The notes: generated by a model not told the origin, from the letters alone. A stretch of DNA of 64,000 bases from an uncultured Gammaproteobacteria bacterium (GCA_964406795.1 CAYOTA010000001.1:77081-141080), one strand, 5' to 3'. Shown: positions 4,104 through 11,404, counted from the stretch's first letter. Numbers and translations: made by a program.

Positions 4104-4273
4104 CGATTCTAATTCTTAATAGTATATAAATAACTTGCTGGTGGATAGTTTGGATTACAAAGCTTTCCTCGACTGCAATTATATTTGCTAATTTTTCCAT
4201 TTTTATAATTGTAACGTAATGTCTTACGACCCTCTTACCGAATTTTTATTCAACGGATACTTTTAAGTGTTTT

Positions 4274-4290
4274 AATTAACTAAGTTAATT
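4274..4290. promoter_or_regulatory. 17-bp palindrome AATTAACT-A-AGTTAATT. Putative MarR operator, copy 1, upstream of the CHRD protein gene.
   Basis: Perfect 8+1+8 inverted repeat; same core TTAACTAAGTTAA found at 8414..8426 and in reverse at 8945..8957. Confidence 0.45.
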
Positions 4291-4368
4291 ATTTTTCAAA
4301 AAATTCATCATCTTTCATAAATACAGAATTTATTACATTTAAGATTATTTGAAAGGAGGTGAAAAAAA

Positions 4369-5388
4369 ATGTTACATATTAAAACAAAACTAGCAACAGG
4401 GGTAATCACAAGTGCACTTTTATTTAGTGTAGTTACTCCCACATTTGCTGCAACAGAAATCAGAATATCCGGTAACGGATCTGGATCTGACAACACCGTT
4501 TCGGCAAACAAGAACTCTACAACTTCTGTACAACAGAGCAATAGTGCAACTATCAGCAATGATATGAGCACAAGCTCCAATACAGGGTCAAATAGGGCTT
4601 CTAACAATATTCGCGGCAATGTCAGGATTAATTCTGGTGACGCAGACTCTTCTGTCAAAATTTCCAACATGGCCAACATGAATCACGTAAGTGTGGGTGA
4701 TTGTAATGGTTGCAATGGGGATACGGATTTAAGAGTGTCAGGAAATGGATCAAGGTCAAATAACCGTATCAACTTAGATATGGATACTGACATGAGAGTG
4801 TCCCAGGATAACAGTTCACGCATTGATAATACTATCGATACAGAGAACAATTCTGGTGATAATCGTGCAGATAATAACTCCCGCGGAGATGTCATGATCA
4901 GAACAGGAGACACACGTTCAGCGATTCAGGTCTCAAATGATACAAACATGAATCATGTAAGTCTTGGCGGATCAGGAAATAGCGGAGAGAATAAAGGTTC
5001 AGACGGGAATGATCATATGAATCAAACCGGTCGTAAACTCAATGCTTCCCTGACCGGAGCACAAGAAGTTCCTGGCCCTGGAGATCCAGACGGAATGGGT
5101 TGGGCGAGCGTAAAAGCTCATCCAAAAAGTGGACAACTATGTGTTGCAATGCAGGTATCAAAAATTGATCCTGCCGCAGCAGCACACATCCATGAAGCAC
5201 CTAAAGGTGCATCTGGACCGGTAGTTGTAACTTTACCTACTCCAAACGCACAGGGATTTGCAAGCGGGTGTATAACAGTTGACAAAGAGTTACTGAAGGA
5301 AATAAAAAAGAACCCTTCTGACTATTACGTCAATGTTCACAACGCTCTATATCCTGCAGGCGCAGTTCGCGGACAATTGTCCAAATAG
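4369..5388 (+). CDS. Secreted protein with two ~140-aa internal repeats and a C-terminal CHRD domain
   Basis: Signal peptide ending AxA; duplicated block (R[IV]SGNGS...NMNHVS[VL]G); C-terminus LTGAQEVPGPGDPDG...AHIHEAPKGASGPVVVTL...YYVNVHNALYPAGAVRGQL matches CHRD. Confidence 0.65.
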   Translation: MLHIKTKLATGVITSALLFSVVTPTFAATEIRISGNGSGSDNTVSANKNSTTSVQQSNSATISNDMSTSSNTGSNRASNNIRGNVRINSGDADSSVKISNMANMNHVSVGDCNGCNGDTDLRVSGNGSRSNNRINLDMDTDMRVSQDNSSRIDNTIDTENNSGDNRADNNSRGDVMIRTGDTRSAIQVSNDTNMNHVSLGGSGNSGENKGSDGNDHMNQTGRKLNASLTGAQEVPGPGDPDGMGWASVKAHPKSGQLCVAMQVSKIDPAAAAHIHEAPKGASGPVVVTLPTPNAQGFASGCITVDKELLKEIKKNPSDYYVNVHNALYPAGAVRGQLSK

Positions 5389-5415
5389 TATCTCCGTAAG
5401 AGATATTTCTTCTTA

Positions 5416-5459
5416 GGATCCGCACGCATACAAGCGGCGGATCCGGGAAGCTATTTTTT
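5416..5459 (+). terminator. Putative rho-independent terminator after the CHRD gene
   Basis: GGATCCGC...GCGGATCC 8-bp perfect stem followed within 10 nt by TTTTTT. Confidence 0.4.
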
Positions 5460-5546
5460 AACTTGACACCATATTCCTCGTATTTAAAACCTACATTATT
5501 ATATAAAAAGCCTTTTTGTGATAAGATTTGATAAATTCACTGCAAA

Positions 5547-7244
5547 ATGAAATTATTAAATTTATACTATAAAAAGCTTGTTGTATTTGTATTAGTTGCT
5601 ACTTTTCTGCTGGCCCTTATTTTAAGACTCTATAGCCTTTCATCAATCCCCACTGGATTTCATATAGATGAAGCGTCCAAAGGATATACTGCATTCTCGA
5701 TTCTTAAAACAGGAAAAGATGACAATGGAAATATGTTTCCGCTTTATGTAGATATTTTTGGAGATAATAGTCCGTCTGGGTATCATGTACTAACTACTAT
5801 TCCCGTGGCAATATTTGGTCTCTCTGAATTTGCCGTACGCTTACCCGGAGCCATCATCGGGGCACTTTCTATTTTTGCAATATATTTCTTGTCTTACGCA
5901 CTATTTAAAAACAGAAAAGTTGCGGTTTTGAGTGCTTTCCTTCTTTCTGTATCCCCTTGGCATATTATTTTGTCACGTGCATCTAGCGAGTCACTAGTCG
6001 CATTATTTTTTATACTCCTGGGATTTGGTTACATAATAAATAGCCTAAGATCGGAAAAAATAAAAGAACTAGTGATAGGATGTGCACTACTTTCCTTAAG
6101 TTTCTTTTTCTATCAAACACCCCGCCTTTTTGTTCCGCTCATGTTTTTTTCTATACTCATATTTTATATAAAATTTTGGAGTTTAAAACTTTCAAAAAAA
6201 TTTATTAAAACGCTTATTTTTTCATTTTTAGCAATCTGTATACTAAATTTTTCGCTTATATTCATAGCCCCTGGAGGATCGGGAAGATTTGCCCAAGTAA
6301 ACATATTTACCTATCCTGAAACAAAACTAATATTGGATGAACAAATTCGGGAAGACGGAGTAATACAGACAAATAATCTAGTGACGCGCGCATTCCATAA
6401 TAAAGCAATAAACTTTCCGCGCTCATATATCTCCAATTATTTTGAATATTTCTCATTTAATTTTTTGTTTATTAATAATCTTCCACCCTGGTACTTTGTC
6501 CCCGGAGTTGGAGTTATGCACTTAATTTTTTTTCCGTTTATTTTATATGGACTGTTTTTATTGGCCCGTGACAATAACAAACTATATAGGATTCCTCTCA
6601 TTTGGCTTGTTATAGCCCCTGTGGCCGCTGCCACAGCTGTTGACACAAATAATTTACAAAGAGCAATAGTTTTATTTCCTATTTTGGAAATACTAGCAGC
6701 ATTCGGAATCCTGCATGTTTCTGAAAAGTTAAAAAAGATAAAGTTTGTATTTATATTATTTTTATCGATTGGAATACTATTTAGTGCATTTTATTTTCTT
6801 CATCAGTATTTTAACCATTCACCCATACACAAACCTTGGTATAGAAATGCAGGTTTTAAAGAAATGATGGAATACGTAAATATAAATTCTGGAAAATTTG
6901 AGACAGTTGTATTAACTAAAACAGGTGGTGGATATCCACTGGTCCAATTTTATGCGCAATACGATCCTGCTACTTATCAAAAGGAAGGATCGCCAAAAGA
7001 TAAACCATATGGCGGGTTTGGAAAATTCTTCTTTGTAGACCATGAATGTCCGTCACTTGAGATGGACAACAAGATTCCACAAAAAAAAGTTTTATTTATA
7101 AACAATGGAATTTGCAAAAAAGACATACGATATACAGAAGAAGTAATATACCGGACAGATAACACTCCAGCATTTAGAATAGTTAATACTAACAGTAAAT
7201 TATTACCTAACCCAGAAAAACTTGAACTGGATAGATATTTTTAA
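5547..7244 (+). CDS. Glycosyltransferase family 39 (PMT/ArnT-like) integral membrane protein
   Basis: Multi-TM N-terminus; first loop motif LRLYSLSSIPTGFHIDEASKGYTAF (DE motif of PMT/GT39); about 12 TM segments. Confidence 0.6.
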   Translation: MKLLNLYYKKLVVFVLVATFLLALILRLYSLSSIPTGFHIDEASKGYTAFSILKTGKDDNGNMFPLYVDIFGDNSPSGYHVLTTIPVAIFGLSEFAVRLPGAIIGALSIFAIYFLSYALFKNRKVAVLSAFLLSVSPWHIILSRASSESLVALFFILLGFGYIINSLRSEKIKELVIGCALLSLSFFFYQTPRLFVPLMFFSILIFYIKFWSLKLSKKFIKTLIFSFLAICILNFSLIFIAPGGSGRFAQVNIFTYPETKLILDEQIREDGVIQTNNLVTRAFHNKAINFPRSYISNYFEYFSFNFLFINNLPPWYFVPGVGVMHLIFFPFILYGLFLLARDNNKLYRIPLIWLVIAPVAAATAVDTNNLQRAIVLFPILEILAAFGILHVSEKLKKIKFVFILFLSIGILFSAFYFLHQYFNHSPIHKPWYRNAGFKEMMEYVNINSGKFETVVLTKTGGGYPLVQFYAQYDPATYQKEGSPKDKPYGGFGKFFFVDHECPSLEMDNKIPQKKVLFINNGICKKDIRYTEEVIYRTDNTPAFRIVNTNSKLLPNPEKLELDRYF

Positions 7245-7296
7245 AAGTTTATTGCAGTACTTGACGTATACATAAAGCCTACGATATGCTCAAAGT

Positions 7297-8031
7297 ATGA
7301 AATTATTATTTAGGCCAAAATCACAAACAAGCATAACATTTTTTTGCCTTACTCCTCTCGTGTCTTTTTCAACATTTGTGATCGAGTTTGCATTTGCGGT
7401 ATACGTGCTATACAAATATAAACCAACATCTTTTAGCAGACTTTGTGTGCTCGTCCTTCTCTGTTTAGGATTATTTCAACTTTCTGAATTTCTAGTCTGT
7501 ACTACTCCATATATAGATCTTTCAATAAAAATGGGGTATGTAGCAATTACTCTCTTACCAGCTCTAGGACTGCATATTATAAATACCTTAACCCATAGAT
7601 GGAGAACGTTAGTATATATATCTTATTCATGCGTGGCTTTACTCATAGCAGCTATTTTATTTATTCCACAAGTAGCCATTTTGCCCACTTGTAACCCCAA
7701 CTATGTCAGCTATGAAGTAAATTCAACTTTTTCATTCTTTCACTGGCTTTATTATGTAGTCGCAATGGTCATAGGTATAATTCTTTTGACATACTCACTA
7801 TTCAAACGTATAGGAGATAAGAAACAGGAGAAATGGATGATACTGTCATACTTAGTGTTTATTATTCCCTCTATCATTTTGTTATATGCAAATATCATAA
7901 CTAACACAGCGCTTCCATCAGTTATGTGCGGTTTTGCCGTCATAACTGCTGTGATATTTGTGTTTATTATTATTCCTAGACACTATTACTTAAAATCCAA
8001 ATTAAGAAAAAGTAAAAAAAAGAAACGATAA
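7297..8031 (+). CDS. Polytopic membrane protein, function unknown
   Basis: About 7 hydrophobic segments; basic C-terminal tail. Confidence 0.4.
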   Translation: MKLLFRPKSQTSITFFCLTPLVSFSTFVIEFAFAVYVLYKYKPTSFSRLCVLVLLCLGLFQLSEFLVCTTPYIDLSIKMGYVAITLLPALGLHIINTLTHRWRTLVYISYSCVALLIAAILFIPQVAILPTCNPNYVSYEVNSTFSFFHWLYYVVAMVIGIILLTYSLFKRIGDKKQEKWMILSYLVFIIPSIILLYANIITNTALPSVMCGFAVITAVIFVFIIIPRHYYLKSKLRKSKKKKR

Positions 8032-8035
8032 TGCT

Positions 8036-8377
8036 ATGACAGAAAGACAAACTGGATATACACTTTTGGGAATTGGAATTGCCATAATGTGCACTGCTGT
8101 GTTACTAGTTGTCTTGCTTTTTTCAGGAACTATAAATCCTATTTCTCTTTTTAATATTCCAGCCCCGTCTATTAACACAGGAGCTATGATGCCATCTATC
8201 CCCGGTTTGCCTGCAGCAAAAGGAGAAAATATAGAAATACTACCAACAAAAGTGTTTAATGACATGCTAAACCTTGGAGTTCAATTTTTACTTATGACGT
8301 TTATCATGTCCTTTGGTTTTAAACTTGCTGATTTAGGAACAAAACTACTTCGCCCAATCAAAATTGAGCAAAAGTAA
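8036..8377 (+). CDS. Small membrane protein
   Basis: Single N-terminal TM; immediately follows the previous gene. Confidence 0.3.
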   Translation: MTERQTGYTLLGIGIAIMCTAVLLVVLLFSGTINPISLFNIPAPSINTGAMMPSIPGLPAAKGENIEILPTKVFNDMLNLGVQFLLMTFIMSFGFKLADLGTKLLRPIKIEQK

Positions 8378-8411
8378 TATTCACTCTTTACTTTTTATAT
8401 ATTTGTGATAT

Positions 8412-8428
8412 ACTTAACTAAGTTAATT
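8412..8428. promoter_or_regulatory. Putative MarR operator, copy 2 (ACTTAACTAAGTTAATT), 10 bp upstream of the marR-like start
   Basis: Same palindromic core TTAACTAAGTTAA. Confidence 0.45.
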
Positions 8429-8437
8429 AAATAACAT

Positions 8438-8899
8438 ATGAATACAAGTTCAATTTTAAAAAGACTAAATATAAATACTGAATATCTAAACGCATACAGC
8501 GCAGGACTTCTTCAAGGAAAGGCGTATCGCACATTAAATTCTCACTTAACCAAAACGCTTATGCCTTTTGACCTCTCTATCCCAGAATGGAAATTACTAG
8601 GACAACTTCATGACCATGGAAATATGGGACTAGCTGAATTGGCCGATATACTCTCAGTAGAACCACCATTAATAACAAAACTTATAGATCACTTAGAGAA
8701 AAAAGGATATGTAGAACGTGTTCTTCACGAAACAGACAAAAGGTCAAAGATAATCATCATTACAAAAACTGGAGATAAGGCACTTATGGATCTAGAACCA
8801 AAAGTGAAAGAAGTTATGGGAACGTTAGTAAAAGGCGCATCTAAACTGGATATGCTTGCCTACGTTCGCGTACTTGAGACTATTGTAAACAATGGGTAA
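8438..8899 (+). CDS. MarR-family transcriptional regulator
   Basis: Winged-helix region LSIPEWKLLGQLHDHGNMGLAELADILSVEPPLITKLIDHLEKKGYVERV...DKRSKII typical of MarR. Confidence 0.8.
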   Translation: MNTSSILKRLNINTEYLNAYSAGLLQGKAYRTLNSHLTKTLMPFDLSIPEWKLLGQLHDHGNMGLAELADILSVEPPLITKLIDHLEKKGYVERVLHETDKRSKIIIITKTGDKALMDLEPKVKEVMGTLVKGASKLDMLAYVRVLETIVNNG

Positions 8900-8942
8900 G
8901 AAAGTACCCAACAGTATTGACATTATATTTTTTTTACGTAAT

Positions 8943-8959
8943 AATTAACTTAGTTAATA
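8943..8959. promoter_or_regulatory. Putative MarR operator, copy 3 (AATTAACTTAGTTAATA), upstream of the fasciclin gene
   Basis: Reverse-orientation copy of the same palindrome. Confidence 0.45.
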
Positions 8960-9006
8960 ATCTAATTAATAAAATAACTATATGAACAAACTATGTTTGA
9001 AGGGAG

Positions 9007-9612
9007 GTGAAAAAAATGAAAAATAGCGGAATGATAATAGCTATTGTAGCTGTAGTATTAGTTGTAGGGGTTGTTGCTTGGTTTGCCATGAATGGCAAAA
9101 CTGACAACAAGATGGTAACTACTCCAGCACAAAACAACACTATGATGGATCAAAATTCTTCTGAAGGCGTAATGGTTGGAGGAGCTCTCATGACTCCCGA
9201 TATGGATATCGTGGATAATGCAGTTAACTCTAAAGATCATACTACCGTAGTTGCAGCAGTTAAAGCAGCAGGACTTGTGGAAACATTAAAGGGCAAAGGC
9301 CCATTCACAGTTTTCGCGCCAGTTAACGAAGCATTTGAAAAACTTCCAGCGGGAACAGTGGACACGTTATTAATGCCAGAAAATAAAGAAAAATTAACTG
9401 GTGTTTTAACTTACCACGTTGTACCTGGAGCGTACCGTGCAGCAGACATCACTGAAGGGCTAAAATTAAAAACTGTCAATGGACAGGAAATAACTTTCAC
9501 TCAAAAGGATGAAATGTGGTACATAAATGACTCAGCAATGATAACGATTGCTGATGTTATATCAAGTAATGGGGTTACCCATGTAATTGATGGAGTTTTA
9601 CTACCAATGTAA
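9007..9612 (+). CDS. Fasciclin (FAS1) domain protein, membrane-anchored
   Basis: N-terminal TM; TVFAPVNEAFEKLP...LTYHVVPG...ITIADVISSNGVTHVIDGVLLP FAS1 signature. Confidence 0.8.
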   Translation: MKKMKNSGMIIAIVAVVLVVGVVAWFAMNGKTDNKMVTTPAQNNTMMDQNSSEGVMVGGALMTPDMDIVDNAVNSKDHTTVVAAVKAAGLVETLKGKGPFTVFAPVNEAFEKLPAGTVDTLLMPENKEKLTGVLTYHVVPGAYRAADITEGLKLKTVNGQEITFTQKDEMWYINDSAMITIADVISSNGVTHVIDGVLLPM

Positions 9613-9679
9613 ATTGGTGTTTAACACTGCGCCCGTTAAAATTTACGGACGCAGTAATTAAGCAAGGAGCATACAAATC

Positions 9680-11404
9680 ATGGCTGTACTTTTATTTTTT
9701 GCATTCTTATCCGGTCTCATAACAATTTTGGCGCCTTGCATTTGGCCATTACTCCCCATAGTACTTTCAACCTCAATTAAGGGAGGTAAAGCAAAATCAT
9801 TAGGAATAACACTTGGAGTACTTACTACTTTTGGGCTATTGACGCTTGGAATTTCATATTTAGTAAAAATATTTGGAATAGACCCTAATATTTTAAGGTA
9901 TACTTCGGTTGTAATTCTTATAGCATTAGGTGTTTCCATGATTTTTCCTTACCTCAATAGATTACTTGAAGGATTCGTTTCTCAGTTTGCTGGAAAGCTA
10001 GGACAAACAAAAAAGCCGCGTTCTGGATTTAGTGGAGGCTTTGCTACCGGCTCAGCCCTTGGCGTAGTGTGGACTCCTTGTGCGGGACCTATTTTTGCGG
10101 CCATAGCAACACTTTCAGTAACATCATCGGTAAATTTTGGAATTATACTTGTCACCATCGCCTATCTTATAGGGGTAGGAATTCCGTTATTTCTATTTTC
10201 ATATGGGGGACAAAAATTAGTTTCTGATACACGATTCCTTTCTAAATATACTGGACGCATCCAGCAAATTTTTGGTGTAGTACTTTTACTTACTGCGATT
10301 CTAATTGGGACTAATTATGACAAAGAACTACAGGTAAAAATTTTAAATGCTGTACCCTCATACACAAATTTTTTAATAAATTTTGAGAAATCATCTATTA
10401 TTACTAATGAACTCAATAAGTTAACTGGGAGAAAAGAATTAATACTAGATGACACTTCTCTTTTTAATACAAATACTATCGCTCCAGAGATAACTGGTAT
10501 CACAAATTGGATTAACACAAATGGAAAACCTATATCGCTTAAAGAATTAAAGGGCAAAGTTGTACTTATAGATTTTTGGACATATACATGTATCAACTGT
10601 ATACGTACACTTCCCTATTTAAACTCATGGTACGAGAAATATAATAAAGAAGATTTTGTACTTATAGGTGTGCATTCTCCGGAATTTGAATTCGAAAAGA
10701 AAACTAAAAACGTGAAAGATGCAGTGGAAAAATATAAGATAAAATATCCAGTAGCACAAGATAATAATTTTGGAACATGGAAGGCCTTTTCTAATCAGTA
10801 TTGGCCTTCAAAATATTTAATTGATACCAAGGGCGTAATCAGACGCATTCAGTTTGGCGAAGGAAAATATGAAGAGATGGAAAAAGCGATTCAACTTTTA
10901 CTAAAAGATTCTGGAAAGAATATAAATGAAAAAATTAAAGCTGCTCCAAAGCAGACAACACAATTGCCGTTATCTCCTGAAACATATTTAGGTTCTAAAA
11001 GAATGCTCTACTTAGTACCAAATGGAAAAGCTGACAACGGGATACAGGAATTTACCCTGCCTCAAAATATTACAAAAAACCGCTTCGGGTTTAATGGTGT
11101 ATGGAATATACTTGATGAATACTCGATATCTACAAAAGAAAGCTCGTTAACATATAAGTTTTCAGCAGGAAAGGTATATATAGTCATGCATCCTGCAAAC
11201 ACTCCTGGAACAGTTGAGGTTTATCTGGATGGGAAAATAATTGATAATTCAAAAGCCGGATCAGATGTAAAAAATGGGAGAGTTACAGTTAACACACCTG
11301 AAAGATACGAATTAGTGTCTCTGCCTAAAGCAGGAAATCACACTCTTAAACTTGTATACAAAACGGATGGGATTCAAAACTACGCATTCATCTTTGGAGA
11401 GTAA
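9680..11404 (+). CDS. CcdA/DsbD-like thiol:disulfide transporter fused to a thioredoxin-fold (TlpA/redoxin) domain, with an extra C-terminal domain
   Basis: TM region with the two conserved Cys (APCIWPL; WTPCAGPI); later KVVLIDFWTYTCINCIRTLPYLN CxxC thioredoxin motif. Confidence 0.65.
   Translation: MAVLLFFAFLSGLITILAPCIWPLLPIVLSTSIKGGKAKSLGITLGVLTTFGLLTLGISYLVKIFGIDPNILRYTSVVILIALGVSMIFPYLNRLLEGFVSQFAGKLGQTKKPRSGFSGGFATGSALGVVWTPCAGPIFAAIATLSVTSSVNFGIILVTIAYLIGVGIPLFLFSYGGQKLVSDTRFLSKYTGRIQQIFGVVLLLTAILIGTNYDKELQVKILNAVPSYTNFLINFEKSSIITNELNKLTGRKELILDDTSLFNTNTIAPEITGITNWINTNGKPISLKELKGKVVLIDFWTYTCINCIRTLPYLNSWYEKYNKEDFVLIGVHSPEFEFEKKTKNVKDAVEKYKIKYPVAQDNNFGTWKAFSNQYWPSKYLIDTKGVIRRIQFGEGKYEEMEKAIQLLLKDSGKNINEKIKAAPKQTTQLPLSPETYLGSKRMLYLVPNGKADNGIQEFTLPQNITKNRFGFNGVWNILDEYSISTKESSLTYKFSAGKVYIVMHPANTPGTVEVYLDGKIIDNSKAGSDVKNGRVTVNTPERYELVSLPKAGNHTLKLVYKTDGIQNYAFIFGE

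Follow-up and report, generated by a model that had tools for sequence, protein, structure and literature searches.

The window analysed here, a 64,000-nucleotide stretch of DNA from an uncultured Gammaproteobacteria bacterium (GCA_964406795.1, CAYOTA010000001.1:77081-141080), carries a gene for a MarR-family regulator and three copies of a 17-bp palindrome, one before marR itself and one each before the genes of two surface proteins. The bacterium is read here as a member of the candidate phyla radiation, probably of the Levybacteria. The genome is AT-rich, with a GC content of about 37%. On the plus strand, a secreted CHRD-domain protein of 339 amino acids is encoded at 4369..5388 (Pfam CHRD, 8.7e-27); it has a Sec-type signal peptide ending in TFA/AT and a C-terminal CHRD domain at residues 225-337. 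The MarR-family regulator of 153 amino acids is encoded on the same strand at 8438..8899 (Pfam MarR, 7.8e-17), followed by a membrane-anchored fasciclin (FAS1) protein of 198 amino acids at 9016..9612 (Pfam fasciclin, 2.3e-36) and by full-length DipZ at 9680..11404 (Pfam DsbD_TM, redoxin and Thioredoxin_10). A first-pass annotation of this DNA had named the CHRD, marR and fasciclin genes, and Pfam confirms all three; the fasciclin start was corrected, since an independent gene call (198 amino acids) places it at ATG 9016 and not at GTG 9007.

The palindrome reads AATTAACTAAGTTAATT at 4274..4290 (operator 1, a perfect 8-1-8 palindrome), ACTTAACTAAGTTAATT at 8412..8428 (operator 2) and AATTAACTTAGTTAATA at 8943..8959 (operator 3). 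The first-pass annotation had placed it at these positions only, and both reading and motif searches of the 64-kb window bear this out. The 13-bp core TTAACTWAGTTAA (TTAAC-TWA-GTTAA), allowing one mismatch on either strand, has three matches in the window, all of them exact, and the 17-mer with up to three mismatches is found at the same three places and nowhere else in it. Dinucleotide-preserving shuffles give an expectation of 0.25 core matches, and three were reached in 2 of 100. A position weight matrix trained exclusively on sites of other genomes scores operators 1, 2 and 3 at 21.6, 22.2 and 20.4 bits, respectively; the runner-up position in the window has 9.8 bits, and the best scores of mononucleotide shuffles have a mean of 13.2 and a maximum of 18.6.

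All three operators overlap the final 3 nt of a -10-like hexamer. Operator 1 covers the end of an extended -10 element of the CHRD promoter, TGtTTTAAT at 4268..4276 on the plus strand, read from the sequence and lacking a good TTGACA -35 box. Operator 2 covers the end of the -10 box of the marR promoter (8387..8414, plus strand), which consists of a -35 box TTTACT (8387-8392), a 16-nt spacer and an extended -10 box TGaTATACT (8406-8414). Operator 3 lies likewise on the FAS1 promoter (8917..8945, plus strand), where TTGACA and AATAAT are separated by a 17-nt spacer and agree with the consensus at 11 of 12 positions. Because each palindrome begins within the last bases of its -10 hexamer, a bound protein would cover the transcription start. 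The 17-mers end 78 nt before the CHRD start codon, 9 nt before that of marR (ATG 8438) and 56 nt before that of FAS1; the first-pass annotation gave 10-80 bp. Its observation of a near-identical Shine-Dalgarno and start context in the CHRD and FAS1 genes also holds, GGAGGTGAAAAAAAATG and GGAGGTGAAAAAAATG being one A apart. The extended ribosome-binding site GGAGGTGA is present in five copies in the whole window, including those of CHRD (4355-4362) and FAS1 (9003-9010, with GGAGG at 9003-9007). The marR leader, by contrast with its targets, is short and has no Shine-Dalgarno sequence, and such a leader would suggest low translation of the repressor.

The comparative footprint of the palindrome was obtained from scans of genome and metagenome collections, which gave 31 related loci (L001-L031), mostly from Levyibacteriota (Levybacteria) and all retrieved through MarR. 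MarR identity in these loci is 42-61%, except in L031, a MarR fragment at 38% identity that falls below the range of the others. The 314,624 bases of the 31 loci contain 63 matrix matches of at least 11 bits, and all but two (L007, 14067; L011, 10288) lie directly 5' of a gene. A site precedes marR in 24 of the 27 loci that belong to this MarR subfamily. The palindromic operator overlapping its own promoter that marks MarR-family regulators is therefore seen both in the window, where 8412-8428 lies on the TATACT -10 box, and in these 24 loci. Of the subfamily loci without a match before marR, L021 and L024 carry a weaker TTAAG-AAG-NTTAA at the same place and L031 is cut. A site precedes FAS1 in 19 loci and CHRD in two (L005 and L008); single loci have one before dipZ (L016) and before a gene for a DUF4383 protein (L001), two have one before a gene of an unnamed membrane-anchored family of 230-260 amino acids (L002 and L005), and two before unknown genes (L017 and L025). 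The 35 nt upstream of the related sites nearly always hold TTGACA-like and TATAxT boxes. The palindrome is centred 8 nt past the last base of the -10 box in 14 of 24 marR promoters and 6 nt past it in 14 of 20 FAS1 promoters. The extended -10 arrangement of the CHRD promoter recurs as TGtTTTAC(T) 5' of CHRD in L005, L008 and L034, the last from the CHRD-based sample described below. Among the upstream regions of L001-L030, the TTAAAT that flanks the marR palindrome on its 3' side is conserved. The related marR genes are consistently without a Shine-Dalgarno sequence, and their start codons lie 6-27 nt past the operator, whereas the targets mostly have GGAGGTGA.

The association of the site is exclusive to this MarR subfamily. 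The palindrome is absent at the four loci with a paralogous MarR (L006, L010, L012 and L018), whose recognition helix reads TSL or is otherwise divergent, and L012, without the palindrome, comes from the same assembly as L002, which has it. A sample of six loci drawn by CHRD instead of MarR behaves likewise; this tally omits the P0116 contig, in which CHRD lies beside a divergent marR, and L039, whose contig starts 101 nt before CHRD. Operators are found before both marR and CHRD in each of the three loci with an adjacent marR (L033, L034 and L035), while in L036, L037 and L038 CHRD is not preceded by an operator and marR is absent from the surrounding 4-6 kb. Operators thus precede CHRD in five loci overall (L005, L008, L033, L034 and L035), and since the operator is present where CHRD adjoins marR and absent without marR, it tracks marR and not CHRD as such. 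L034 has an additional operator before an unnamed 232-aa gene. Some loci have symmetric operator variants, TTAAG-N3-CTTAA or TTAAT-N3-ATTAA, and changes that are symmetric between the halves are as expected for a dimer-bound site. Position 5 of the operator also covaries with residue 81 of MarR, the lysine of T-K-L in the recognition helix PPLITKL (residues 76-82). Where this residue is Lys, 20 of 23 loci have a TTAAC-type operator next to marR; where it is Arg, Ala, Val or Met, none of six does (Fisher p = 1.8e-4, shared ancestry not corrected for).

The regulator itself is a winged helix-turn-helix protein of the MarR family by its PF01047 score of 61.4 bits (cut-off 24.6). It has 119 matches among solved MarR-family structures, the closest being the generic members PA3341, Lin2960 and SlyA, and 111 homologues in the protein collection, several of them labelled Levybacteria and some called hemolysin regulator by their sources. 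The homologues form a tight subfamily with the invariant N-terminal motifs GLLQGKAY ... PEWKLLGQ. Like E. coli MarR, MepR, SlyA and PA3341, the protein is about 150 amino acids long, and like generic MarR repressors it is associated with a palindromic operator that overlaps the transcription start and -10 box, both in its own promoter and in those of neighbouring target genes. It differs from them in its own invariant N-terminal motif and in reaching the cut-off of no NCBIfam equivalog, the best being HpaR with 44.7 bits against 121. Membership in the SlyA/RovA group was rejected, the SlyA equivalog giving 38.5 bits against a cut-off of 120. The OhrR type was rejected as well (28.2 bits against a cut-off of 200), and thiol sensing of that type is excluded because the MarR of the window has no cysteine.

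The known regulators most similar at the DNA are AdcR and ZitR of streptococci and lactococci, zinc-responsive proteins that, as is predicted for the MarR of the window, act as homodimeric repressors with the MarR fold. Their operator consensus, TTAACYRGTTAA, overlaps promoter boxes (PMC6372160; PMC7012047). The half-sites TTAAC and GTTAA are identical in both systems, and alignment of the proteins by hhalign shows that the recognition helix motif [VI]-T-K (VTK in AdcR) is common to both. The threonine of this motif is reported to contact the major groove. The alignment with AdcR spans residues 58-118 against AdcR 47-107, that is, the winged-helix domain alone, at 25% identity. The AdcR/ZitR operator has 12 bp with a 2-nt spacer, whereas a 13-bp core with a 3-nt spacer is found in the window and at the related sites. 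AdcR binds zinc through E24, H42, H108 and H112, and its sequence, checked against 3tgn, has a His-rich EEHHHHHEH stretch. This His-rich zinc site is absent from the MarR of the window, and the target genes encode surface and redox proteins instead of zinc uptake. Membership in the AdcR/ZitR group was rejected on these three grounds: spacer length, missing zinc ligands and target genes. The MarR protein described here would work like AdcR/ZitR at the DNA, yet it is not a member of that group.

Taken together, the sites and their conservation suggest an autoregulatory circuit of a familiar kind. The 153-aa MarR would bind as a homodimer to TTAAC-N3-GTTAA (in its 17-bp form, wwTTAACTwAGTTAAww). 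Each of three sigma-70-type promoters has one copy, beginning at the 3' edge of its -10 box. The bound dimer would cover the transcription start and block RNA polymerase, so that MarR would repress its own gene, the CHRD gene and the FAS1 gene, probably together with dipZ downstream of it, until a signal released it from the DNA. The claim of the first-pass annotation, that an autoregulated MarR controls two surface-protein genes, is in this way supported by comparative evidence, the palindrome being kept in the same promoter register before marR, FAS1 and CHRD in about 30 loci. We infer that the MarR of the window is the protein that binds these sites and that it acts as a repressor, and we hold this to be quite probable.

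Three other explanations of the palindromes were weighed. That they are chance AT-rich sequence, part of a repeated element, or RNA hairpins with no DNA-binding role draws some support from the AT-richness of the genome and from the two shuffles in 100 that gave three one-mismatch 13-mer matches. In the window, though, the three matches are exact and stand 10 bits above the next best site. The flanks of the three sites have no further similarity, so that a repeated or mobile DNA element was rejected, and an RNA hairpin was rejected also, since the palindromes fold at -1.1 to -3.5 kcal/mol, no better than shuffles. The conservation of site position across about 30 loci has already refuted this explanation, and its chance of being correct is negligible. 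A different transcription factor, encoded elsewhere, might instead bind the palindrome, with marR as merely one of its targets. Retrieval of L001-L031 through MarR lends this idea some weight, as it makes adjacency to marR partly a matter of sampling. It is nevertheless very improbable in view of the site before marR itself in nearly all subfamily loci, and of the CHRD genes, where loci without marR lack the site and three of three loci with marR and available DNA carry it. The covariation of operator position 5 with residue 81 and the half-sites and [VI]TK motif common to AdcR/ZitR point the same way.

It is also conceivable that MarR binds the palindrome as an activator or dual regulator in the manner of SlyA/RovA. 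SlyA is among the closer solved relatives, the hemolysin-regulator label is attached to some homologues, and the CHRD promoter, having no -35 box, might need activation. The position, however, is that of a repressor: in most orthologous loci, as at the three promoters of the window, the operator is centred on the transcription start, about 6-8 nt 3' of the -10 box. The FAS1 promoters, moreover, come close to the consensus (TTGACA/TATAxT) and should work without activation, and the low SlyA equivalog score speaks against a SlyA/RovA-like protein. Activation is thus considered improbable, and repression by MarR remains the preferred reading.

Several points weigh against that reading nonetheless. 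The co-occurrence of the site with marR is partly built into a sample retrieved through MarR, and the CHRD-based sample, with its six loci, is small. The covariation can be taken only as suggestive, because the sequences are related and three loci (L020, L021 and L024) depart from it. A clear -35 box is missing from the CHRD promoter, which is accompanied by extra conserved CTTAC boxes, so a second regulator may act there. The motif scan covers 64 kb of this genome, out of a source contig of 150.9 kb, and further sites, non-promoter ones included, may lie beyond it. Finally, the stable hairpin between FAS1 and dipZ makes co-transcription of dipZ uncertain.

CHRD promoters have no TTGACA box. 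In the window (4221-4239) and in L034-L038, boxes of the form (T)CTTAC recur 25-35 nt 5' of the CHRD -10 region, also where the MarR operator is absent. CHRD genes may be under the control of an alternative sigma factor or of a second regulator.

The third target is probably a FAS1-dipZ unit and not FAS1 alone, with dipZ downstream in the same transcription unit; we infer this from gene order and conserved synteny. The order marR-FAS1-dipZ is kept in L002, L004, L007, L011, L013, L015 and L016, and in L016 dipZ has its own operator. In the window the unit ends with dipZ, since the next gene, lon, is convergent. The spacer between FAS1 and dipZ holds a stable hairpin at 9627..9654 on the plus strand (-19.9 kcal/mol, z = -3.5), which has no U-tract. 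A strong GC-rich hairpin was found at the same place in six of six other loci checked (L002, L004, L007, L011, L013 and L015); the spacers fold at -20 to -60 kcal/mol, and the hairpin sequences are unrelated and likewise without a U-tract. The hairpin is probably an attenuating or stabilising structure inside a FAS1-dipZ transcript, although it may also represent a type of terminator or attenuator, lacking the U-tract, that is characteristic of these bacteria. Since a hairpin of this kind recurs in six loci without a U-tract, dipZ may be expressed by partial read-through.

A fasciclin surface protein gene next to a full-length dipZ gene, as found here, is also the arrangement of a co-regulated mycobacterial system, in which SigK-RskA controls the mpt83-dipZ-mpt70 triad (PMC3078919; PMC9861118). 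The proteins themselves are related as well. The solved-structure matches of the FAS1 protein are Rhodobacter Fdp (1w7d) and MPT70 (1nyo; 7.8e-16), and the best solved relative of DipZ is M. tuberculosis DipZ (2hyx, E = 6.7e-60). DipZ has a CcdA-type membrane domain (Cys20, Cys134), a thioredoxin-like domain (CINC, 304-307) and a C-terminal Thioredoxin_10 domain, with its redox cysteines kept. The regulation, however, is of another type. The SigK system uses an extracytoplasmic function sigma factor and an anti-sigma factor, whereas a MarR-linked palindromic operator and sigma-70-like promoters are found here, and Pfam detected no sigma or anti-sigma domain in the 18 larger open reading frames between 463 and 19429. 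The CHRD protein is an additional target in comparison with the SigK regulon. That FAS1 and DipZ are paired in a very distant phylum under another type of regulator speaks for functional coupling between them. This coupling cannot be that of a disulfide substrate, as the FAS1 protein has no cysteine.

The FAS1 protein of the window is Cys-free and has a Met-rich linker that ends in GVMVGGALMTPD. Comparison of the window with L002, L004, L007-L009, L011, L013-L016, L022, L023 and L031 shows that the orthologues are likewise Cys-free and have an N-terminal membrane helix followed by a Met-enriched linker, with 3-8 Met in 22-53 residues (8-23% Met against a background of 2.4%); in most of them the linker ends in the motif GVMVGGALMTPDK. 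It is possible that this linker serves as a Cu(I)-binding or oxidant-scavenging tether.

The protein sequence bears on the nature of the signal. In addition to lacking cysteine, the MarR of the window has no histidine beyond residue 97, and neither amino acid is among the residues that the aligned subfamily keeps invariant or nearly so. Given the absence of cysteine and of conserved histidine, a small molecule acting as ligand would be a likelier signal than a metal or the oxidation of thiols. All of the targets are secreted or membrane-anchored. Neighbouring genes of sister loci encode MsrA (L017, L028, L034 and L039), MsrB (L035 and L039), extra thioredoxins (L034 and L035) and a cupredoxin (L034), and together with DipZ these hint weakly at a link between the regulon and oxidative damage of the envelope.

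The marR and CHRD neighbourhoods (L034, L035, L039, L017, L028 and the P0116 contig) also repeatedly hold Msr, thioredoxin or glutaredoxin, and UvdE, and they contain a paired short-chain dehydrogenase and GDSL lipase, which gives them a flavour of oxidative or UV damage.

Further features of the CHRD gene and its surroundings were observed. Overlapping tblastn matches imply that the Asn/Ser-rich N-terminal module of the window CHRD protein is duplicated (approximately residues 30-115 and 120-205); most CHRD orthologues have about 245 amino acids and one copy of the module. In L005 a protein of 302 amino acids joins the module to a C-terminal domain of another, unrelated kind, and its gene likewise has an operator on the 5' side. 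A sequence search found no solved structure related to the CHRD protein. CHRD directly adjoins marR in L005, L008 and L034, whereas in the window alone the two are separated by genes for a PMT_2 glycosyltransferase (5547-7244, Pfam), a protein with seven transmembrane segments and a membrane protein of 113 amino acids. These genes (5547-8377) look like a local insertion into the regulon cluster. The unnamed regulon member is a family of Ala/Gly-rich membrane-anchored proteins of 230-260 amino acids, probably helical and without a Pfam match, encoded at 4655-5428 of L002, 8586-9284 of L005 and 7591-8289 of L034, with the operator at a strong promoter in all three genomes.

The paralogous MarR loci have features of their own. 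L006, L010 and L012 share a conserved promoter-like stretch in downstream position, cttgacttc ... ttaacgatacttaagcac. It precedes a gene for a membrane protein and is probably the distinct operator of the paralogous MarR. At about 7840-7900 of L012 (JACDET010000021.1), approximately nine TTTAGGG repeats, the unit of plant telomeres, lie directly 5' of the paralogous marR. The contig is from a Levybacteria metagenome-assembled genome, and the run may be a true tandem repeat or the product of a chimeric assembly.

To our knowledge, transcription-factor regulons are little charted in bacteria of the candidate phyla radiation, most of which are uncultured. One full-text search of a literature collection for a MarR-family regulon in Patescibacteria found nothing, and one for fasciclin with MarR, in which the term matched the starts of words, returned bone-marrow papers alone. 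What the comparative sequence evidence supports is a conserved circuit in these bacteria, in which a MarR repressor from an uncharacterised subfamily regulates itself through the operator. A repressor on a palindrome is a textbook mechanism; what is new is the composition of the regulon, with FAS1 and dipZ, CHRD and others, and the parallel with SigK. An operator consensus with its promoter register, a set of targets and a residue that determines specificity now define the regulon for testing. It is tempting, albeit unlikely at present, to regard the regulon, together with the extra thioredoxins, MsrA/MsrB and cupredoxin of sister genomes, as a defence module of the candidate phyla radiation against oxidative damage of the envelope, equivalent to that of SigK and wired to a ligand-sensing MarR. 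The stimuli of the SigK regulon remain obscure (PMC9861118), and the regulon described here offers a second, simpler system for finding the signal of FAS1-DipZ. If this view is correct, the identity of the MarR ligand would reveal the stimulus that has been obscure for so long, as well as what FAS1-DipZ pairs do in bacteria.

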